A stretch of 64,000 nt of DNA. Origin: Escherichia phage vB_EcoM-UFV11. The notes beneath the pieces are model-generated. The model did no database searches. It worked only from the letters and a program-made list of their open reading frames with translations, and had not been told where the DNA came from. Where the stretch lies: sequence record OP555982.1. One strand, 5' to 3'. The position numbers and the translations under genes are program-made. Shown here piece by piece: positions 9,130 to 56,669 of the stretch (position 1 is the first letter of the stretch; each line of letters begins with the position of its first letter).

Positions 9130-9600
9130 TTAATCATGTTTCCACACCCCATCGGTATTTGACCAAAGTCGCTGATTATCTGATCCTCGCCACAGCTTTT
9201 TAGTCGGAAGATTTTTCTCATACTTCCCATCAATAATAACATCAACATATTTAAGCATTTCTAGTTGTTTAATATCTTCAAACTTATATCCTGTCCACAA
9301 CCAAATGCTTTTATTAGGATAAAGATTTTTAATAGTTTGAACCACAGAGTGAATCACGTCTCTGTTATCAGGATAGAGAGGGTCACCTCCAGTTATAGTT
9401 AATCCTTCTATATAATCATTATTCAAACATTCAATTAATTGTTCTAGTGTTTCACCAGTGAATGGAACGCCATTTCTAGCATTCCATGTTGATTTATTAT
9501 AACACCCTTCACATTTATGCAAACAACCTGTAACGAAAAGAACGACCCTGCATCCAGGGCCATTCACAAAATCACAGGGATAAAATCTATCGTAATTCAT
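9130..9600 (-). CDS. nrdG: anaerobic ribonucleotide reductase activating protein (radical SAM)
   Basis: 156 aa; CxxxCxxC cluster motif in GCLHKCEGCYN. Confidence 0.9.
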   Translation of the reverse strand: MNYDRFYPCDFVNGPGCRVVLFVTGCLHKCEGCYNKSTWNARNGVPFTGETLEQLIECLNNDYIEGLTITGGDPLYPDNRDVIHSVVQTIKNLYPNKSIWLWTGYKFEDIKQLEMLKYVDVIIDGKYEKNLPTKKLWRGSDNQRLWSNTDGVWKHD

Positions 9601-11414
9601 TGGTGTTTAACCCTATGCATGATTTCTTTATTTTTGCCGAGATTAAATCCGCGTTCGTTCGGATTTCCCAAATAACCACATGTTCTTCTTATTGTGTTCA
9701 TCTTTTTAGGATCAGTTTCTCCACAAATAGAACAAACAAATCCGTTTTCAGTAGGAGTCATTTCATGGGTACTTCCACATGTAAAACATTTATCTACTGG
9801 CATATTAACACCAAAATAATCTAAATGTTGTGCAGCATAATCCCATACGGCCTCAAGACCCTTTAAGTTATTTTTCATATCAGGAAGTTCAACATAAGAA
9901 ATGTGGCCGCCTGTCGCAATGAAATGATATGGTGCTTCGCGAGAAATCTTTTCAAACGGAGTAATATTTTCTTCTACTGAAACATGGAAACTGTTAGTGT
10001 ACCAACCTTTATCGGTAACATCCTTTACACTTCCATATTTTTCGGTATCAAGTTTACAGAAGCGATAACAAAGGTTTTCAGCAGGAGTAGAATACAAACT
10101 AAAAGCAAACCCAGTTCTTTCAGTCCACTGTTTAAGACGAGCATTCATTTTAGTTAAAATTTCCTGTCCAATATCACGACCGACAAGAATATTCAATTCG
10201 TGAATACCAATGTATCCTAGAGACACTGAACTTCTGCCATTTTTAAATAACTCAATTATATCGTCATCAGGTTTAAGACGAACCCCGAATGCACCTTCTT
10301 GATAAAGAATAGGAGCAACAGTCGCTTTAACTCCTTTTAAGGAACTAATTCTACACATCAAAGCTTCAAAACATAAATCCATTCGTTCATTGAATAATTC
10401 AACAAATTTCTGTTCATTGAACTGTGTTCCAATATAAGAATCTAATGCGATACGAGGAAGATTCAGTGTTACAACACCGAGATTATTACGTCCATCAAGA
10501 ATTTCATTGCCAGTCGAATCTTTCCATACGCTCAAGAAACTACGACAACCCATTGGAGAAACAGGAATAGATGAGCCGGTGATAGCTTTATTGTTCTTAG
10601 CCGAAATAATATCAGGATACATTCTTTTGCTTGCGCACTCTAGAGCAAGCTGTTTAATATCATAGTTCGGATCGTCTTTATAAAGATTAACACCTTCTTC
10701 AACGAACATAACAAGCTTAGGGAAAATAGGAGTTATCCCATCACGACCAAGACCTTTAATACGATTTTTCAGAATTGCTTTCTGAATCATTCGTTCAGTC
10801 CAGTCAGTTCCTGTACCAAATGTAATTGTTACAAAAGGTGTTTGTCCGTTTGAGCTAAAGAGAGTATTTACTTCATATTCATAAGCTTGGAATGCATCGT
10901 ATACATCTTTTTCTGTTTTAGATTGAGCATAATTCAACGCATCAGCGATTTGCCATTTTTCTGCATCCTCAATATGTTTTGCATAGGTGCGTTTAACATA
11001 AGGAGAAAGTACTTTATCTACATTAGCAAAAGTCGTTCCGCCGTATTGATGGGAAGCAACCTGTGCAGTAATTTGTGCCATAATTGCAGTAGCAACACCG
11101 ATTGATTTAGGAGTTTCAATCTGTGCATTACCAAGCTTAAATCCGTTCTCAAGCATTCCTTTTAAATCTACTAAACAACAATTAGTAAATGGAAGAGCAG
11201 GGGAATAATCAATATCGTGGAAATGAATAATTCCGCTTTCATGCGCTTTCATAATAAAAGACGGGACCATATTTTTGGCAATGTGTTTAGACACAATACC
11301 AGCCATAAGGTCCCGTTGAGTTGGAAAAACACGAGAATCTTTATTAGCATTCTCGTTTAAAAGGTCTTTATTAGTTTTATGAATCAATCCTTCAATTTCT
11401 TTTTCAATTGTCAT
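9597..11414 (-). CDS. nrdD: anaerobic ribonucleoside-triphosphate reductase (glycyl radical enzyme), uninterrupted
   Basis: 605 aa; C-terminal glycyl-radical motif RRTCGYLG and Zn-ribbon CFTCGS...CSICG; continuous ORF (no intron). Confidence 0.95.
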   Translation of the reverse strand: MTIEKEIEGLIHKTNKDLLNENANKDSRVFPTQRDLMAGIVSKHIAKNMVPSFIMKAHESGIIHFHDIDYSPALPFTNCCLVDLKGMLENGFKLGNAQIETPKSIGVATAIMAQITAQVASHQYGGTTFANVDKVLSPYVKRTYAKHIEDAEKWQIADALNYAQSKTEKDVYDAFQAYEYEVNTLFSSNGQTPFVTITFGTGTDWTERMIQKAILKNRIKGLGRDGITPIFPKLVMFVEEGVNLYKDDPNYDIKQLALECASKRMYPDIISAKNNKAITGSSIPVSPMGCRSFLSVWKDSTGNEILDGRNNLGVVTLNLPRIALDSYIGTQFNEQKFVELFNERMDLCFEALMCRISSLKGVKATVAPILYQEGAFGVRLKPDDDIIELFKNGRSSVSLGYIGIHELNILVGRDIGQEILTKMNARLKQWTERTGFAFSLYSTPAENLCYRFCKLDTEKYGSVKDVTDKGWYTNSFHVSVEENITPFEKISREAPYHFIATGGHISYVELPDMKNNLKGLEAVWDYAAQHLDYFGVNMPVDKCFTCGSTHEMTPTENGFVCSICGETDPKKMNTIRRTCGYLGNPNERGFNLGKNKEIMHRVKHQ

Positions 11415-12566: not shown

Positions 12567-12671
12567 TTAAGTCATTTATCGTTGGTTCATTATATACTGT
12601 TTCTTCATCAGTGTAAACCGGTTCTTCCGGCTCTGGCTCTACAGTTTCCCATCTAGCCGCCCACCAAGGTT

Positions 12672-12992
12672 TTATAGCGTAATCCATTCTCGTACTATCT
12701 GAGTTACTACACGTTCACGGGGCTCGACTAGTTCAACAGTCGGAACTGCATAATACCAGTCAGAATGATAGGAACCTGACCGAGATTCATTTACAGCCAC
12801 ATGTACATTATGTTTTGGACTAAAGTAAACACACTGACGATATTGGCATTTACCATCTTGCACCCAGTCTTCTATTTCGATAGGTTTAAGATAATCGGAA
12901 AAATCGAAATCATAGTTTTCCGAAAATGCATCATGGTCTTCAATGATTTCGCTCAGAACTGCATCAACATCTAATTTATTTTCAATAGTCAT
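12672..12992 (-). CDS. hypothetical protein
   Basis: 106-aa ORF. Confidence 0.5.
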   Translation of the reverse strand: MTIENKLDVDAVLSEIIEDHDAFSENYDFDFSDYLKPIEIEDWVQDGKCQYRQCVYFSPKHNVHVAVNESRSGSYHSDWYYAVPTVELVEPRERVVTQIVREWITL

Positions 12993-27555: not shown

Positions 27556-28093
27556 TTACTATTTCCAAAAGTTTATTATTTTTAAGGTAGTTAGCCTTTT
27601 CTAGGACTTCAGAAGCATATTTAGAACCTGCTTTAACATTCCATCCCGAATTATAAGAGGATATTGCTTTTCTTATATCGCCCTTATGTATATTTAACCA
27701 ATAAGAAAGTTCAATGTACGCCCAGGAAGCTGAATTGGATCGTTTATTCAACATTCTTTTTATTTCAGCATCGGTCATATTATAACCAAGTTCCTTAACT
27801 CTTGCTCGCATAGTAGGCAAATAATTTTGGAACATTCCATAAGCGTGATGCTTTGGTTTAGATTTTAAATTAACTCCGCCAGAGCTTTCTTGCCATAAAA
27901 TAGCAGCCATTATATGACCTAATCCGCTCTTGTGGATATTTTTATGTGTTTTATATTTTCCATCCTTAGAAAACTGTTCCCCGAATTGATACGCGTAACG
28001 CATGTTATCGAGTTGGACATTACTGAAAGTATGCTCGGAGCTATGTGCCATCATTGAAATGGCCAATAGACCAGCGAGTAGTGCTTTTCTCAT
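27548..28093 (-). CDS. periplasmic lytic transglycosylase-like protein (SLT domain)
   Basis: 181 aa; signal peptide; SLT motifs ILWQESSG, YGMFQ, SYNSG. Confidence 0.7.
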   Translation of the reverse strand: MRKALLAGLLAISMMAHSSEHTFSNVQLDNMRYAYQFGEQFSKDGKYKTHKNIHKSGLGHIMAAILWQESSGGVNLKSKPKHHAYGMFQNYLPTMRARVKELGYNMTDAEIKRMLNKRSNSASWAYIELSYWLNIHKGDIRKAISSYNSGWNVKAGSKYASEVLEKANYLKNNKLLEIVND

Positions 28094-28100
28094 GCTTACC

Positions 28101-28562
28101 TCATTGAGTTTTAATTACTGCTTTAGAAGCCTTTCCTGGTAAACGACGACTGTTAATAATTGCCATCCTGCATTGAAGCGACGGGTCTTTGAACTTCGCA
28201 TTAGGTTTACAAACTGTAAATCCAAGCCAAAGATTTCCATCTGTGATTTCTAAACGTCCAGGACGATATTCAACCCCATCAATAAAATCCTCGTCAATGT
28301 CAGGACGCGGAGGCATACTCAGGAATTCATTAACTTCTAAAACATGGTCTTTTATTTTATGGAATAATTCAAAAACGTATGTCTCATCAATCTCCCGTTG
28401 AATTGCGCGATCAAGAAGATGTTGAGAATATTTTAGATGAAACGATGAGACCCCTGCTGCTTTTGATGCCTCACGAATCTCATTGTTAATTTGACGAAAC
28501 TCCGACTCAAAGTGACGACGAAGCTTATTTCGACGGATAAAAACTTCTGTGTTGATAGTCAT
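28101..28562 (-). CDS. regB: RegB site-specific endoribonuclease
   Basis: 153 aa; sequence and length as T4 RegB; early promoter upstream. Confidence 0.85.
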   Translation of the reverse strand: MTINTEVFIRRNKLRRHFESEFRQINNEIREASKAAGVSSFHLKYSQHLLDRAIQREIDETYVFELFHKIKDHVLEVNEFLSMPPRPDIDEDFIDGVEYRPGRLEITDGNLWLGFTVCKPNAKFKDPSLQCRMAIINSRRLPGKASKAVIKTQ

Positions 28563-28589
28563 GTTATTCTCCTCTTAACTGATAGAAAA

Positions 28590-28619
28590 ATTATACCACA
28601 GTCAAGAGGAAAAGTAAAC
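28590..28619 (-). promoter_or_regulatory. T4-type early promoter (GTTTAC-N18-TATAAT)
   Basis: GTTTAC 28619..28614, TATAAT 28595..28590. Confidence 0.6.
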
Positions 28620-28621
28620 AG

Positions 28622-28900
28622 TTATTCTTTAAATCTAATCAATTTATTCATAGACTTTGAAACTTCTGTACGAACCTCATGTAGATTTTTGAGTTGTTCA
28701 AGACGCTGCGTATAGTAAGCAATTTCATCTTCTTCGAGACAGTCCTGTGAATCTTCTTTAAGATAGCGTGCATAGTCCTGGAAAGCGTTACGGATTACTT
28801 CCTGGAAATCATCAAGACTTTGAATTTTCTTAGGAGCAGCAGATACACGACGAGGGGCAGTATAATACTCATAACCAAACCCTGCGCTTAATTGAGCCAT
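28622..28900 (-). CDS. hypothetical protein (vs.x region)
   Basis: internal ATG MAQLSAG overlaps upstream stop. Confidence 0.45.
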
Positions 28901-29166
28901 TAGTATTTTTCCTCTGGTTGGAACACAGCACGACAAGCCCACATACTGGCTTCTTTGAGTTTCGTTTTAGCAATAGTTAACTGATCGAGGCTTTCGGCGT
29001 AATTCTTCGCGAGTTCATCATCTTCACAGCTATCAAATGCTTCCCAAAATTCATCGTATAAAGCATCAAAGATAAGTCCTAAACGAACTTCAGCGTCTTT
29101 AATAGCATTTACTTTACCGATTTTTTCGTCGGTATGTGGCTTATAACCTTTAATATCTTCAATCAT
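28900..29166 (-). CDS. small helical hypothetical protein (88 aa); position compatible with T4 vs.4
   Basis: [45 protein letters not shown]...; start 4 nt after upstream stop. Confidence 0.45.
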
Positions 29167-29380
29167 ATTTGACTTCCTCACCAGTACATAAATCGTATTC
29201 AACTAAACGAATAGGTTCATGAATGCCATATCCCTGAACAGAAATTTCTGTCGTAGGATAAATTCCATCAATATCACCCATATTCCAGGCTTCGTTAAAT
29301 TGCTGTTCGCCTGAATTACTAAACCACTCGGCGAAAGCATTTAGCACATCTTTAGAACCTTCAATAATTATCTTTGCCAT
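29159..29380 (-). CDS. small acidic hypothetical protein
   Basis: 73-aa ORF, start overlaps upstream stop. Confidence 0.5.
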   Translation of the reverse strand: MAKIIIEGSKDVLNAFAEWFSNSGEQQFNEAWNMGDIDGIYPTTEISVQGYGIHEPIRLVEYDLCTGEEVKYD

Positions 29381-29742
29381 TACAAACTCTCGGTAAAGGT
29401 ACGAGCGATAACGTCGCGCTGCTGTTCCGGAGTCAGAGAGTTAAAGCGAACTGCATAACCGGATACACGGATGGTCAGCTGCGGATATTTTTCCGGATGC
29501 TTAACTGCATCTTCCAGAGTTTCACGACGCAGAACGTTAACGTTCAGGTGTTGACCACCTTCAATTTTAACTGTAGGCTGTTGCTCAATTTCAATTTCAC
29601 GGGCATGCAAACCGTAGAAAATTTCTGGGTCTACAAAAGAGTCCTCTTTAAAAGTTTTAGAGACAATAATTCGTGCTTGAATACCATCTTCAAAATAAAT
29701 AGTACCTTTATGCGTGCCTTCAAGAATTTGATATGCTTTCAT
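29380..29742 (-). CDS. autonomous glycyl-radical cofactor (GrcA/YfiD-like)
   Basis: 120 aa; C-terminal about 60 aa [59 protein letters not shown] matches E. coli GrcA as recalled; local GC near 50%. Confidence 0.8.
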
Positions 29743-29749
29743 ATAAACC

Positions 29750-30079
29750 TCAATTAGAAAATAAATTTATCCAAGATTGTTCTTTAATTAAAAATGGCTC
29801 AGAATCATATGCCATTAAACTCTGCGTGATTAGTCCTTTAAAAGGTCCATCAATAAATTCCATGGTAAAATATGGAATTTTATTCATTAGCCGTGCGTTA
29901 GGAGCAGTACATAAAACTCTGCATCCTTTGAATACGCCTTTTTGTAATTTGTATTGCTTAGGATAAAATTCGCTCAAGACGTTGTTATTTGCCAAAATTT
30001 CAAAATGATTCACCAATTTATTTTTAATAGTTTTTGGCGAAAAATAAAGATATTCGAAAAGTTGCGTGTCTGTCATCAT
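29750..30079 (-). CDS. hypothetical protein translationally coupled to upstream P-loop gene
   Basis: ATG ATG overlaps stop of the upstream ORF (CAATGATGACA); about 109 aa. Confidence 0.5.
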
Positions 30080-30615
30080 TGCATTCCGATTATGAAAAAC
30101 TGTGGACGAGTAATACCACCAATGCAACATTTAATATTACAGCAGCAGTGTACAGTTTCAATATGGACACTATAAATCTTATCCATATCAGGAGATTTGA
30201 CAGGTTCATCAATTATATACAAAATTCGCGAAAGCGATAAACCTCTGAACTTGCTTCCTTTATTACCAATAAAACTGCGCACAGAATCAGCAAATAAACG
30301 AAAACGTATATCATCATTAGAATAACGCGAAAATTCCTTTTTAATGTTATTTGAAGAAATTTTAGCGTAAGCTGAAGTATTAGAAAGAACAATAACTGTT
30401 CCGCCATCATACAACCAATTAGCGGCAAAATTAGTTACTGCAGTTGATTTACCGGATTGACGTCCACCATCTAGTCGAAGTGTGCAATACTGCTTAAGTA
30501 AGTCTTCAAATGGTGGGATATAATCGTTTTTACAAATTTCTTCTACTCTAGCGTCAGAATGGTGTGTAAAAGCATTCATCAGGGATAGATAAGGACCAGT
30601 TAAAAATGTTCTCAT
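30076..30615 (-). CDS. P-loop NTPase (small ATPase/kinase-like)
   Basis: about 179 aa from MRTFLTGPY; Walker A DGGRQSGKST, Walker B-like ILYIIDEP, C-terminal Cys cluster HCCCNIKCC. Confidence 0.55.
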   Translation of the reverse strand: MRTFLTGPYLSLMNAFTHHSDARVEEICKNDYIPPFEDLLKQYCTLRLDGGRQSGKSTAVTNFAANWLYDGGTVIVLSNTSAYAKISSNNIKKEFSRYSNDDIRFRLFADSVRSFIGNKGSKFRGLSLSRILYIIDEPVKSPDMDKIYSVHIETVHCCCNIKCCIGGITRPQFFIIGMQ

Positions 30616-30768
30616 TTTATTCTCTCTAAATTTGGGCCATTCCATGGCGCATGAATTGTCCATTTCTGTATTTACCCATTACCGCACTTGGGCTCGACCT
30701 TATTACAGGTTGGCGGGAATCCCTCACAGAATCATGAGGTCCAGCTTGTTCCCATATTTCTTATTTGC

Positions 30769-31242
30769 TTATTTGAATGATTTAACGTACTGAATAGAAC
30801 CTTTACTATTCACAAAGGCAATTTTACCATTTTTGTTATACATAGTAGCAGTACGTTGATAGCCATAAGTTTGTTTACCAGATTGATAACCAACTAATGC
30901 GAAATTATCTTCACCCATTTTATTCTGTTTAGCGCGAATGCGTTCATGACCATGTGCCATAAGAACCTTAGCATCACCAGTTGCAATGGACCGACGAGTT
31001 TTTTCATCTTCAACTGTATTAACAAAGTCGTCAAATGAATCAAATTTAGCATGAGATTTATTATACAGTTTTCCATCTACTGCATAATTATATCCTTGTA
31101 CATCCATCTCAACTTCTGTACCATCATCTAATACCGCAGTAATTTTCTGTCCTTTTTTAAATTTCAAAAGATCAGTAAAAGATTCAGCAATAATTTGAGA
31201 ATTAATAGCTGCTTCAGTAATAAATTCTTTATACGTTTTCAT
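30769..31242 (-). CDS. internal (head-packaged) protein with capsid-targeting leader
   Basis: 157 aa; N-terminus MKTYKEFITEA (T4 internal-protein leader, prohead-protease site after ITE). Confidence 0.65.
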   Translation of the reverse strand: MKTYKEFITEAAINSQIIAESFTDLLKFKKGQKITAVLDDGTEVEMDVQGYNYAVDGKLYNKSHAKFDSFDDFVNTVEDEKTRRSIATGDAKVLMAHGHERIRAKQNKMGEDNFALVGYQSGKQTYGYQRTATMYNKNGKIAFVNSKGSIQYVKSFK

Positions 31243-31258
31243 GTGTATCCTTTAATTT

Positions 31259-31576
31259 TTATTCTTTAGGGAAGTTTTTAGAATATGCATCATAAAGCTT
31301 ATTTCCAATACGGCGGAAAACTCTAGCCGCAAAACGATTTTCTGGGTTTTTAATCATGATTTGCATCATATAAGTACCCGCGTCAGAAAGAGCTTCTTCA
31401 TAGTACCCGTTAATTTCTTTAAGAGTCCTACGTTTACCACCAGGACCATCAACAGTGATTTTCCATTTACCTGTAGAAGTGCGACTTGGCGGTTCAACTT
31501 GTTCAATCCAGATATAACCGCCTTCTACACGCTGTCCTGCAACAGATTCTGCAATAAATTCTTTATACGTTTTCAT
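31259..31576 (-). CDS. internal (head-packaged) protein with capsid-targeting leader
   Basis: 105 aa; N-terminus MKTYKEFIAES. Confidence 0.65.
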   Translation of the reverse strand: MKTYKEFIAESVAGQRVEGGYIWIEQVEPPSRTSTGKWKITVDGPGGKRRTLKEINGYYEEALSDAGTYMMQIMIKNPENRFAARVFRRIGNKLYDAYSKNFPKE

Positions 31577-34939: not shown

Positions 34940-35413
34940 TTATTTGATTTGTTTAGCAGACCAAATGCGGTCTTTAATAATTTTTTGGATGTCTTCAACA
35001 TACTCAAGAGAATGAGCATGTGGGTTATCTTTAAAGCTATGAGCACGAGCTAGCTTTTGGCCTTCAGTTTTGATTACTAAAAGCTCTTTAAGGATAGCTT
35101 CATATTTGGAGATAATTCCTTTAACGATATTTTTTTCTTGTGCGACTTTAGGATCTGCTTTAGGAGCAGGTTTACCCGAAGCCTTTGCAAAAGCAGCGCC
35201 AGTAGCAACTAAACTTTTCCAGGCCATACTAACTGCATTTCCCGTAAATCCTTCCGCTTTCATGTCGCGTGCGAACTGGAATCGTGATTCATCAGAAGCA
35301 TCTTTGTAAGAATATTTACCCGCTGCAATGGCTGCTTTTGCGACAGCTTGAATTTCGGTGCTAGATGCTTCATTTAACACCGCTTCATTTAAAAATTGAG
35401 TATATGATTTCAT
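34940..35413 (-). CDS. internal-protein-like gene with capsid-targeting leader, in its own late cassette
   Basis: 157 aa; N-terminus MKSYTQFLNEA (L-x-E cleavage context); Ala/Lys-rich; late promoter upstream and terminators on both sides. Confidence 0.6.
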   Translation of the reverse strand: MKSYTQFLNEAVLNEASSTEIQAVAKAAIAAGKYSYKDASDESRFQFARDMKAEGFTGNAVSMAWKSLVATGAAFAKASGKPAPKADPKVAQEKNIVKGIISKYEAILKELLVIKTEGQKLARAHSFKDNPHAHSLEYVEDIQKIIKDRIWSAKQIK

Positions 35414-35449
35414 CTTATTTCCTGTTTTAATTCGTGGATTTAATATACT

Positions 35450-35457
35450 TATTTATA
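35450..35457 (-). promoter_or_regulatory. T4 late promoter TATAAATA
   Basis: exact TATAAATA on minus strand about 36 nt upstream of the ATG at 35413. Confidence 0.6.
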
Positions 35458-35459
35458 CT

Positions 35460-35487
35460 AAAAAGCCCCAACCTTTTGGTCGGGGCT
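35460..35487 (-). terminator. intrinsic terminator, near-identical copy of 34905-34932
   Basis: AGCCCCGACC-AAAA-GGUUGGGGCU + U-tract on the minus strand; immediately followed by the late promoter. Confidence 0.7.
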
Positions 35488-35489
35488 AA

Positions 35490-35795
35490 GCCTTGCGGCA
35501 ACCTTGTCGGGGTTCCACCTGCTAAGGCAAGTGTTTGTACGAAACGCCGGGATTCGAACCCGGTTATTAAGCAGTTGACGCTACTCAATATTTTTAAAAG
35601 GCCATATCTCGACCATATCCGAACGTTCCGTCAAAAACGCTACTCGGCTTACGGCAAAGATATTTCCTCGAATCGATAATTCGGTGCGCCGTTTCTGCTG
35701 TGATAGTAAAGAGCCAGAACACAGTAAAACTGTGGGAGGAAACTATACTCCAGGGAACATCAGTCCGACGACTTACCGGTAGCGACCCGGTTTCT
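35490..35795 (-). ncRNA. structured non-coding region, candidate stable small RNA(s) (T4 species 1/2-like position)
   Basis: no ORF; GC-rich paired segments; contains tRNA-like T-arm CCGGG-UUCGAAU-CCCGG (35546-35562) without a full cloverleaf. Confidence 0.35.
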
Positions 35796-36145
35796 TAGTA
35801 TTCTTTTAAAGCATCAATTTGTTCACGGCGTTTACGCCATAAATCAATTGCTTCATAAGCAGATTCAGCATTTCGAATTAGCCGACATTTATATAAAGAC
35901 TTGTGATTTTGGTATTGCGTAGATAATGGAATTTTATCTAAAAGGTCTTTGCGTTCAAAGTATTCGTAACCATCTAAACCAAATGAACGATTTTTGAGAA
36001 ATTGCCAATGACCATATTCGTTTTCGACATAAACATAATCTGCATGCTGATAAAGCAAATTAATTACACGTTCAGAAATAACAGTATCATTATGATTAAA
36101 ATAGAATGTTAAATCATGAACTACTAAATAAACATTACCTTTCAT
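35795..36145 (-). CDS. hypothetical protein adjacent to tRNA cluster
   Basis: 116-aa ORF. Confidence 0.5.
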   Translation of the reverse strand: MKGNVYLVVHDLTFYFNHNDTVISERVINLLYQHADYVYVENEYGHWQFLKNRSFGLDGYEYFERKDLLDKIPLSTQYQNHKSLYKCRLIRNAESAYEAIDLWRKRREQIDALKEY

Positions 36146-36163
36146 ATTTTCCTCACTTATAAT

Positions 36164-36239
36164 TGGTCGAGGCAGTAGGGATCGAACCTACGACCCAGGA
36201 CTTAGAAGGTCCTTGCTCTTCCTTCTGAGCTATGCCCCG
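36164..36239 (-). tRNA. tRNA-Arg (anticodon UCU)
   Basis: manual cloverleaf: acceptor CGGGGCA/TGCCTCG, T-loop GGTTCGATCC, anticodon loop CUUCUAA, encoded CCA. Confidence 0.8.
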
Positions 36240-36243
36240 TAAT

Positions 36244-36319
36244 TGGGGTGACCGATGGGAGTCGAACCCATGACTACGAGAATCACAATCTCGAGTTCTA
36301 CCAACTGAACTACGGCCAC
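36244..36319 (-). tRNA. tRNA-His (anticodon GUG)
   Basis: acceptor GTGGCCG/CGGTCAC, T-loop GGTTCGACTCC, anticodon loop ATTGTGA, encoded CCA. Confidence 0.7.
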
Positions 36320-36433
36320 ATTAATACCTACTCCAACAATCATGATGTCTTCACACGAAATTAAGAGAAGAGTGATCAGTTCAACCCCTATAATCGCGTC
36401 AAGTAGATATTAATGTGACAGTTGTCACAAATT

Positions 36434-36508
36434 TGGCGGACGTGATAGGATTCGAACCTATAACCAATCGCTTAACAGGCGATCGCTCTGCCATTGAGCT
36501 ACACATCC
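36434..36508 (-). tRNA. tRNA-Asn (anticodon GUU)
   Basis: acceptor GGATGTG/CACGTCC, T-loop GGTTCGAATCC, anticodon loop CTGTTAA, encoded CCA. Confidence 0.75.
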
Positions 36509-36512
36509 AAAT

Positions 36513-36599
36513 TGGTGGGGAGTGATGGAGTCGAACCACCCGAGTCGCAATGACAATGAATTTACAGTCCACACCGCTACCTCTACGGGATAACTCCCC
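36513..36599 (-). tRNA. tRNA-Tyr (anticodon GUA), class II with long variable arm
   Basis: 87 nt; acceptor GGGGAGT/ACTCCCC, anticodon loop CTGTAAA, T-loop GGTTCGACTCC, encoded CCA; anticodon stem has G-U pairs. Confidence 0.6.
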
Positions 36600-36605
36600 T
36601 TAATT

Positions 36606-36680
36606 TGGTGGCCCTGGGTGGAATTGAACCACCATCTGGCGATTATGAGTCGCTTGCTTGAACCTTCCAGCTACAGGGCC
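36606..36680 (-). tRNA. tRNA with CAU anticodon (Met, or Ile if position 34 is modified)
   Basis: acceptor GGCCCTG/CAGGGCC, anticodon loop CTCATAA, T-loop GGTTCAATTCC, encoded CCA. Confidence 0.7.
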
Positions 36681-36681
36681 T

Positions 36682-36757
36682 TGGTGCTGATTGACGGAAT
36701 CGAACCGCCGACATCCTCATTACAAGTGAGGTGCTCTACCTACTGAGCTAAATCAGC
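36682..36757 (-). tRNA. tRNA-Thr (anticodon UGU)
   Basis: acceptor GCTGATT/AATCAGC, anticodon loop CTTGTAA, T-loop GGTTCGATTCC, encoded CCA. Confidence 0.8.
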
Positions 36758-36762
36758 AAAGC

Positions 36763-36852
36763 TGGCGGAGGCGATAGGATTTGAACCTATGAATCGCCGG
36801 AGCGACTGCCGGTTTTCAAGACCGGTGCATTAAACCACTCTGCCACGCCTCC
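36763..36852 (-). tRNA. tRNA-Ser (anticodon UGA), class II
   Basis: 90 nt; acceptor GGAGGCG/CGCCTCC, anticodon loop CTTGAAA, long variable arm, T-loop GGTTCAAATCC. Confidence 0.8.
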
Positions 36853-36854
36853 AG

Positions 36855-36928
36855 TCTCCATACAAGGATTTGAACCTTGGACCTCCTGATCCCAAATCAG
36901 GCGCTCTACCAAACTGAGCTACACGGAG
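36855..36928 (-). tRNA. tRNA-Pro (anticodon UGG)
   Basis: anticodon loop TTTGGGA, T-loop GGTTCAAATCC; CCA not encoded. Confidence 0.75.
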
Positions 36929-36938
36929 TAAATTAAAT

Positions 36939-37012
<74 letters not shown>

Positions 37013-55122: not shown

Positions 55123-56669
55123 GTAACAATACATATCAGCACGTATCAAATGAATCAAAATACGTTAAATTCGATCCTGCAGGATCGAATTTTCCTGACA
55201 CTGTCACGACAGTGCAGTCAGCATTATCAAAAATAAGTAATATCGGCGTAAATGGTATTCCTGATGCAACTATGGAAGTTAAAGGAATAGCAATGATTGC
55301 ATCGGAGCAAGAGGTTTTAGATGGAACTAATAATTCTAAAATCGTTACACCAGCTACATTAGCAACAAGATTATTGTATCCAAATGCTACTGAAACTAAA
55401 TATGGATTAACGCGCTATTCAACAAATGAAGAAACTTTAGAAGGCTCAGATAATAATTCATCAATAACGCCGCAAAAACTGAAATACCATACTGACGATG
55501 TATTCCAAAATAGGTATTCATCTGAATCATCAAATGGAGTTATTAAAATATCATCTACTCCTGCGGCTTTGGCTGGTATAGATGATACTACGGCGATGAC
55601 TCCGTTGAAAACCCAAAAACTCGCAATAAAATTAATTTCGCAAATAGCTCCTTCAGAAGACACAGCATCAGAATCTGTTAGAGGTGTAGTTCAGTTATCA
55701 ACTGTCGCTCAAACTCGTCAAGGAACTCTCCGCGAAGGATATGCAATTTCTCCGTATACCTTTATGAATTCTGTTGCAACACAAGAATATAAGGGTGTTA
55801 TACGTTTAGGAACACAATCAGAAATTAACAGTAATTTGGGAGATGTTGCAGTAACAGGTGAAACATTAAATGGTCGAGGAGCTACCGGTTCTATGCGTGG
55901 GGTAGTAAAATTAACGACGCAAGCCGGTATTGCCCCTGAAGGTGATAGCTCTGGAGCATTAGCATGGAACGCAGATGTAATTAATACTCGCGGTGGACAA
56001 ACTATTAATGGTTCTTTAAATTTAGATCATTTAACAGCAAATGGAATTTGGTCGCGCGGCGGAATGTGGAAAAATGGCGATCAACCTGTTGCCACTGAAA
56101 GATATGCGTCCGAAAGGGTTCCAGTTGGAACTATTATGATGTTTGCTGGAGATTCAGCTCCTCCTGGTTGGATTATGTGTCATGGTGGAACCGTGTCAGG
56201 AGATCAATATCCTGATTATAGAAACACAGTTGGAACGAGATTTGGTGGCGATTGGAATAATCCTGGCATTCCTGATATGCGAGGTCTTTTCGTCAGAGGA
56301 GCTGGTACTGGTGGTCATATTTTAAATCAACGAGGGCAAGATGGTTACGGGAAGGATAGACTTGGTGTAGGATGTGACGGAATGCATGTTGGCGGTGTTC
56401 AAGCACAACAGATGTCATACCATAAACATGCTGGTGGTTGGGGAGAATACCAAAGACATGAAGCTCCATTTGGCGCGTCCGTTTATCAAGGATATCTTGG
56501 AACTGGAAAACATGCCGACTGGGATAATGCTTCATACTTCACTAATGATGGATTTGAATTAGGTGGACCGAGAGATGCCCTTGGTACACTTAATCGTGAA
56601 GGATTAATTGGTTATGAAACTAGACCATGGAATATATCATTAAACTATATTATTAAAATTCATTACTAA
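55119..56669 (+). CDS. 12: short tail fibre protein gp12
   Basis: 516 aa; repetitive N-terminal shaft; Zn-binding HxH-containing C-terminal knob. Confidence 0.9.

Follow-up and report, generated by a model that had tools for sequence, protein, structure and literature searches.

Evidence that vs.6 of Escherichia phage vB_EcoM-UFV11 joins an old phage grcA homolog to a glycyl-radical domain recently derived from its host

Escherichia phage vB_EcoM-UFV11 encodes a small protein that ends like the E. coli glycyl-radical cofactor GrcA (YfiD), which raises the question of where its gene comes from: is it an old phage gene, a recent copy of a host gene, or something of both? We addressed this question on a stretch of 64,000 nucleotides of the phage genome (OP555982.1), hereafter called the window. 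The gene as such, its similarity to YfiD and the biochemical activity of the T4 protein, Y06I, were already known. A preliminary description of the window had proposed that the gene is host-derived, and either relatively recent or strongly constrained. The best overall explanation, to which we assign a probability of roughly 0.9, is that the gene is the ortholog of T4 vs.6, that its product is a spare part for pyruvate formate-lyase (PFL), and that it forms a mosaic with a recent host core.

The open reading frame occupies positions 29380..29742 on the minus strand and encodes 120 aa, with an ATG start and a TAA stop according to the list of open reading frames and our reading of the sequence. 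A Shine-Dalgarno motif, GAGG (29748..29751, minus strand), lies 5 nt upstream of the start and overlaps the TGA stop of vs.7. Sequence and coordinates show operon-like packing, with a gap of 7 nt between vs.7 and vs.6, and the stop of vs.6 overlaps the start of vs.5 (TAATG). The gene order in the window (vs.8, vs.7, vs.6, vs.5, vs.4, vs.3, regB, vs.1, vs, tk.4) is the same as in T4, and the genes around vs.6 include T4 lysozyme e, nudE, regB, vs, vs.1 and tk.4. The gene thus has vs.7 and vs.5 on either side, within the vs-regB-(denV) early region, and its neighbours are unrelated small phage genes. At this very position the T4 reference genome carries vs.6, labelled 'autonomous glycyl radical cofactor GrcA' (NP_049730; UniProt P13316, GRCA_BPT4), whose product is identical to that of the window at 118 of 120 residues (differences Q54P and R73H). 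Judged by sequence and position, the frame is the Tequatrovirus ortholog of T4 vs.6 (Y06I/GrcA). The precedent that the preliminary description had cited from T4, a YfiD-like protein called Y06I, is this same protein and a validated PFL spare part (PMC8683613). The DNA of the frame is 100% identical in Escherichia phage vB_EcoM-UFV09, which marks the window as Tequatrovirus DNA, and the exact protein sequence is found on 167 public contigs.

Some further features of this region were recorded. An antisense frame with a TTG start (29374..29757, plus strand) was rejected as a mechanical open reading frame, with no evidence for a gene, and a promoter and terminator scan of 28000-31400 gave counts at shuffle expectation. 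Two genes downstream of vs.6, the vs.4 homolog (28900..29202, minus strand, 100 aa) contains a Pfam Acb2/Tad1 hairpin domain (E 1.4e-19) and looks like an anti-CBASS/anti-Thoeris nucleotide sponge. Unlike in T4, denV is absent between vs.8 and the internal-protein genes (30663..31576, minus strand). The place of ipII/ipIII is taken by two frames with the MKTYKEFI capsid-targeting leader, one at 30769..31242 (phrog_3155, internal virion protein) and one at 31259..31576 (phrog_3966).

The protein carries the Pfam Gly_radical domain (PF01228) at residues 60-101, with 67 bits against a gathering cutoff of 22.2 (E 2.5e-18). The NMR structure of GrcA (PDB 6OWR) matches with E 9e-42, the phmmer alignment reaching back to residue 22, and PflB (PDB 1H16/2PFL, residues 697-759) matches Vs.6 residues 58-120 with E 5e-26. 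Near the C-terminus the sequence RVSGY conforms to the radical-site motif RVxG[FWY]. From this sequence and the alignments to 6OWR and 1H16, the predicted radical-bearing glycine is Gly95 (codon at 29458..29460, minus strand), which aligns with GrcA G102 and PflB G734. Vs.6 fits the small size expected of GrcA (about 14 kDa) and stands alone rather than within a full glycyl radical enzyme, whereas the homologous PflB domain, for which the spare part substitutes, belongs to an 85-kDa enzyme. The claim that the C-terminal 60 residues are essentially those of E. coli GrcA proved exact: residues 61-120 of Vs.6 and 68-127 of GrcA are identical throughout.

Matters are different for the N-terminal half. 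Vs.6 shares with E. coli GrcA (P68066; 6OWR) the RVSGY motif and the layout of an N-terminal docking half followed by a C-terminal plug. Its N-terminal half, however, is shorter by 7 residues and has only 28% identity to that of E. coli GrcA, and Vs.6 is encoded by a virulent phage in an AT-rich context. The profile phrog_1209 covers the phage protein over its full length (E 5.7e-63, residues 1-120 on profile positions 1-121). The NCBIfam GrcA equivalog profile TIGR04365 scores it at 154.9 bits (residues 20-120), below the cutoff of 170 and against 233.9 for E. coli GrcA, because the N-terminal half has diverged. Vs.6 is therefore best described as a phage (Vs.6) variant of GrcA rather than as a strict equivalog. 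The preliminary description had called this half phage-specific. This applies to its DNA, since nucleotides 1-178 of the gene are essentially unalignable with host grcA, but it does not extend to a lack of relationship: hhalign joins the phage and bacterial N-terminal halves over 58 colinear columns (probability 89%, E 2e-6, 28% identity), a similarity that is weak yet runs from end to end. By this profile comparison the N-terminal half is an old, diverged GrcA homolog.

At the DNA level the gene falls into three parts, all on the minus strand. The 5' half (29565..29742; nucleotides 1-178 of the frame, residues 1-59/60) is old, phage-type and AT-rich. It is followed by a core (29393..29564; nucleotides 179-350, residues 60-117) that equals E. 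coli grcA at 172 of 172 nucleotides. The short 3' tail (29380..29392), which comprises part of the codon for Thr117, the last three sense codons and the stop, again carries phage-type synonymous variants: it reads ACC GAG AGT TTG TAA against ACT GAA AGC CTG TAA in the host, with 4 synonymous mismatches in 13 nt, and its variants differ by phage genus. The composition changes accordingly along the gene. GC content is 34.3% in the 5' half, 49.4% in the core block, 48.6% in the 3' half and 41.6% in the whole frame, with a window mean of 35.1%, while the two halves have a GC3 of 0.22 (5') and 0.44 (3'). Among the 185-nt segments of the window the 3' half has a GC z-score of 3.1, and 0.7% of segments are as high. 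The GC content of about 50% given in the preliminary description is hence right for the 3' half, but not for the whole frame or the 5' half. The T4 gene resembles that of the window in length, locus (vs.7-vs.5) and 5' junction with the host-like block, yet it has one non-synonymous change in the core, where the window holds a perfect copy, and other variants in the 3' tail.

These parts correspond to parts of the protein. In YfiD, residues 61-127 form the structured plug, which duplicates PflB 693-759, whereas residues 1-60 are disordered, yet needed for binding of cleaved PFL and for efficient installation of the radical (PMC8683613). The core encodes the structured glycyl-radical domain, and the host-identical residues 61-120 of Vs.6 coincide almost exactly with the plug; the 5' half is the counterpart of the disordered cPFL-binding half. 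In other words, the old phage DNA gives way to the host copy almost exactly where the docking half meets the plug. In comparison with Mosigvirus orthologs the 5' half has a pN/pS of about 0.1-0.24, and this purifying selection in phages indicates that it is functional. Taken together, vs.6 reads as a mosaic of an old phage grcA homolog and a recently host-derived glycyl-radical domain.

The source of the core can be narrowed down further. A match to the block is found in all 5426 complete E. coli genomes, of which 5156 match the core at 99% or more, and the sequence in the window is that of the majority E. coli grcA allele. When the 64-kb window was compared with E. coli by megablast, the core was the sole match to E. 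coli chromosomes, so that the resemblance is far beyond chance. A nucleotide alignment with host grcA, which the preliminary description had named as the comparison that could overturn its reading, shows 0 differences in 172 nt, about 44 synonymous sites included, and favours a recent origin from the host. As alternative donors pflB and tdcE were considered and rejected; pflB is only about 80% identical to the block at the nucleotide level, which leaves grcA as the donor. None of the phage records covers 80% or more of the host gene, so a phage with full-length host grcA was not found in the collection. A recent derivation of the core from E. coli grcA is supported by these comparisons, and the earlier proposal of a host-derived and relatively recent gene can be kept for the 3' half, but not for the gene as a whole, which is an old phage gene.

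The only other match of the window in the E. coli collection is a tRNA-Tyr-like segment at about 36510..36603, within a GC-rich tRNA cluster (35151..36990), which is about 89.5% identical to 264 E. coli plasmid records and to no chromosome. Two more short segments, 12596..12805 and 56221..56530, have a GC content of at least 0.47 and no match to E. coli DNA.

A block with such sharp boundaries and a composition unlike that of the phage might also arise from host contamination or chimeric assembly, or the transfer might have run from phage to host. We give next to no credence to these readings. The T4 reference genome has this in-frame mosaic too, as do about 500 independent phage records with an identity of 95% or more, and phage-type sequence flanks the block on both sides within a single frame. 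As for the direction, grcA divergence among enterobacteria is even along the whole length of the gene and tracks host relationships, and the host gene has native composition, whereas the phage block is a compositional outlier. This argues for transfer from host to phage.

A further alternative holds that grcA was acquired once, long ago, and that nothing but strong purifying selection on the glycyl-radical domain has kept it close to the host, without any recent transfer. Indeed, protein-level conservation of the domain is very high across all phages and hosts, grcA codons are strongly biased, and hosts of different genera are already 82-92% identical in the block. Nonetheless, we consider this explanation very improbable. 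The absence of any difference from E. coli at about 44 synonymous sites stands beside a 5' half of the same gene that is saturated. Moreover, in the E. coli phage RB49 a domain that looks working is encoded by DNA with only about 76% identity to E. coli grcA, and RB49 and other lineages keep the domain at only about 72-85%. Constraint on the protein in an E. coli host thus does not force nucleotide identity, and strong constraint, which had been offered as the alternative to a recent origin, does not account for the core.

Phylogeny points the same way. Similarity to vs.6 was found in 1515 phage records, with homologs occupying this locus in Tequatro-, Mosig-, Jiaoda-, Karam-, Slopek-, Pseudoteven- and Krischviruses. 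We built neighbour-joining trees of two partitions, the 5' half and the core, with 300 bootstrap replicates each. In the 5'-half tree all bacterial genes group together (300/300), as do all Tevenvirinae phages (299/300). In the core tree, by contrast, E. coli groups with the Tequatro- and Mosigviruses (300/300), and K. pneumoniae with the Klebsiella Jiaodaviruses (285/300). The two trees contradict each other with high bootstrap support (95-100%), which also speaks against a single ancient acquisition.

The Jiaodaviruses deserve a closer look. Their vs.6 lies at the same locus, has a 5' half orthologous to that of the window (72.5% nucleotide identity) and, in KPV15 and vB_KpnM_17-11, follows the same mosaic plan with the same block boundaries, but the core copies K. 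pneumoniae grcA. Jiaodavirus cores are 94.8%-100% identical to one K. pneumoniae grcA allele (97.6% in KPV15) and 86-88% to E. coli grcA. E. coli and K. pneumoniae differ at 22 sites of the core; of these, the window has the E. coli state at 21 and the Jiaodaviruses have the K. pneumoniae state at 16-18. A Jiaoda-type IMG/VR contig with a phage-type tail (L173) follows K. pneumoniae grcA without a mismatch over at least 146 nt, up to where the contig stops, and 80 phage records reach 95-99% identity to K. pneumoniae grcA. On these comparisons of sequences we regard at least two independent host-to-phage replacements, one in E. coli phages and one in Klebsiella phages, as established. Core polymorphisms among Jiaodaviruses also coincide with variants of Klebsiella and Raoultella grcA genes, which given the few third-position states we do not take as evidence. 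As a separate observation, the 5' half of KPV15 vs.6 has a one-base deletion relative to other Jiaodaviruses that would cause a frameshift, either a pseudogene or a sequencing error.

How often such replacement takes place is less clear-cut. One proposal is that the glycyl-radical domain is repeatedly overwritten by the grcA of the current host, through homologous recombination with the chromosome during lytic infection; to this we would give odds just short of even. The other is that transfer from host to phage took place only twice, E. coli and Klebsiella each being the donor once, and was followed by spread from phage to phage among Tequatro- and Mosigviruses, host conversion not being ongoing. 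This is a real possibility as well, though we would rather bet against it. It is favoured by the 5' junction at nucleotides 178/179, which is common to all Tequatro- and Mosigviruses. (A second junction in some Mosigviruses, placed by BLAST at host nucleotide 155 or 162, was dismissed after alignment as an extension through weak similarity.) In addition, Tequatroviruses isolated from Salmonella still have an E. coli-type core, and no phage core in the collection exceeds 95% identity to the grcA of Salmonella, Enterobacter asburiae or Citrobacter amalonaticus. Queries with the genes of these three hosts reached a phage maximum of about 92%, with E. coli-type phages as the best matches.

Three patterns lean the other way, though they are suggestive only. 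Where the host-identical tract stops at its 3' end depends on the phage (nucleotide 350 in the window, about 356 for T4 and about 353 for both RPN187 and pSe), and the tails are genus-specific. The identities of Jiaodavirus cores to one K. pneumoniae allele span the wide range given above. Finally, two Jiaodaviruses differ at 1 of 178 nucleotides in their 5' halves but at 7 of 172 in their cores (p = 0.03).

The age of the E. coli-type core can be judged from synonymous differences. Between the window and three of four Mosigvirus genomes these amount to 10-12 of 37 in the 5' half and 1-3 of 44 in the core (Fisher p 0.001-0.008). The fourth Mosigvirus, AV118, has 6 of 44 core synonymous differences from the window (p 0.10), and the contrast between 5' half and core is not significant for AV118, T4 and pSe_SNUABM_01. 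Since the core holds fewer synonymous differences than the 5' half, it is younger than the split between the Tequatro- and Mosigvirus genera. Such a young core means either repeated refreshing from E. coli or the spread of a converted allele between phages, and part of the pattern seen in E. coli phages could be due to one converted allele passing from phage to phage. Ongoing, frequent conversion is therefore plausible but unproven.

Outside these genera the picture differs. RB49 and other Krischviruses, Karam-, Slopek- and Pseudotevenviruses, T5-like Tequintaviruses and RaK2-type jumbo phages, all virulent phages of enterobacteria, encode small standalone GrcA-like proteins of 115-140 aa. Unlike in the window, no recent host copy is evident in these phages, with cores of at most 85% identity to sampled host grcA; for the Karam-, Slopek-, Pseudoteven-, Krisch- and T5-like phages this holds against every sampled host. 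De-replicated IMG/VR homologs are bimodal in the same sense: two groups are 97.6-100% identical to their host and the other lineages at most 85%, except for L127, an unclassified 19-kb contig with 91% identity to a Yersinia grcA. A set of IMG/VR contigs of about 90-154 kb (L117-L122 and L129), partly from human-associated metagenomes, encodes a 130-aa GrcA-like protein with about 60% identity to vs.6. In this uncharacterised phage lineage the core reaches only about 80% identity with any of the enterobacterial grcA genes sampled.

What the protein would do for the phage can be derived from work on its relatives. Y06I and YfiD are the sole two validated PFL spare parts, and both are activated by PFL-activating enzyme (PMC8683613). 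Knappe and co-workers found that activated YfiD or T4 Y06I binds PflB that has been cleaved by O2 at G734 and restores its activity, the in vitro restoration by T4 Y06I being reported by Wagner et al. 2001 (PMID 11444864), as cited in PMC8683613. The function of Vs.6 in the window is transferred from its T4 ortholog and this in vitro work, and the mechanism that we propose is as follows. The gene would be expressed from the densely packed leftward vs-regB block. Host PflA would then install a radical on Gly95 in RVSGY, and the C-terminal domain (residues 61-120) would plug into host PflB cut by O2 at G734, restoring the conversion of pyruvate and CoA to acetyl-CoA and formate; both steps have been demonstrated in vitro with the T4 protein, which is 98% identical. 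Docking on cleaved PflB, the task of residues 1-60 in GrcA, probably falls to the diverged N-terminal half. The benefit may lie in a maintained supply of fermentative energy and acetyl-CoA during microaerobic infections. Activase and PflB would come from the host, and the phage would add extra plug protein, or a plug with altered docking behaviour. As to its evolution, an old resident grcA homolog would recently have had its 3' half overwritten by homologous recombination (gene conversion) with E. coli grcA, with a parallel and independent replacement in Klebsiella phages from K. pneumoniae grcA.

A role other than PflB repair, such as a spare part for the O2-sensitive NrdD of the phage itself or a decoy that sequesters PflA or cleaved PflB and so redirects host metabolism, appears improbable to us. 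Both nrdD and nrdG, which the preliminary description had mentioned, are present in the same genome, at 9130..11414 of the window: nrdG (9130..9600, minus strand), the anaerobic activase of the phage, has Fer4_12 and Radical_SAM matches, and nrdD (9597..11414, minus strand), its anaerobic glycyl-radical enzyme, has the Pfam matches NRDD (E 1e-171) and Gly_radical. Furthermore, the N-terminal half combines its low identity to that of the host with purifying selection in phages, and the literature searched yielded no in vivo phenotype for the phage protein. The plug, however, is identical to that of GrcA and 80% similar to PflB at the nucleotide level, so it is not NrdD-like, and Y06I restores PFL activity in vitro (PMC8683613). 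The two nrd genes lie 18-20 kb from vs.6, and a functional tie beyond a shared anaerobic lifestyle would be conjecture.

One side observation concerns nrdD itself, which in the window is one uninterrupted frame of 605 aa with a full-length NRDD Pfam match. It appears to lack the group I intron that T4 nrdD (sunY) carries.

The phage-specific N-terminal half, on which purifying selection acts, offers a natural variant with which to study the GrcA N-terminus, whose role is still unexplained. Host-matched plugs in E. coli and Klebsiella phages are clean natural evidence of recombination between strictly virulent T4-like phages and homologous genes of the host chromosome. Should the repeated overwriting by current hosts be true, vs.6 would be a host-tracking gene whose plug is kept matched to the local PflB/PflA, and a natural, datable reporter both of conversion from chromosome to virulent phage and of the recent host genus of a phage lineage. 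We found no description of such repeated overwriting in the literature searched. The nucleotide-perfect core, the coincidence of boundaries and the host-genus-specific cores were likewise undescribed there, with the reservation that Wagner 2001, Bowman 2019 and Miller 2003 may mention them.

A comparable case comes from the sea. Zeidner in 2005 and Sullivan in 2006 are reported to have described host/phage mosaic psbA genes of marine cyanophages. By this analogy psbA is, like vs.6, a host-derived metabolic gene in T4-like phages with intragenic recombination between host and phage, although the pathway, the hosts and the gene are different.

Two records among the relatives of the window stand out for other reasons. 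In Salmonella phage Lv5cm (MZ150757.1; L179:1338-1523) the 5' end of vs.6 is partially duplicated in tandem directly upstream of the intact gene. The duplicate comprises the first 51 residues followed by a frameshifted tail, and represents a real duplication or an assembly artefact. Escherichia phage Av-05 (NC_025830.1, L004, 120,938 bp) is filed under Vequintavirinae, but its vs.7-vs.6-vs.5 layout is that of Mosigvirus AV118 and in alignments its vs.6 behaves as a Mosigvirus gene does, which suggests that the record is mis-classified or chimeric.
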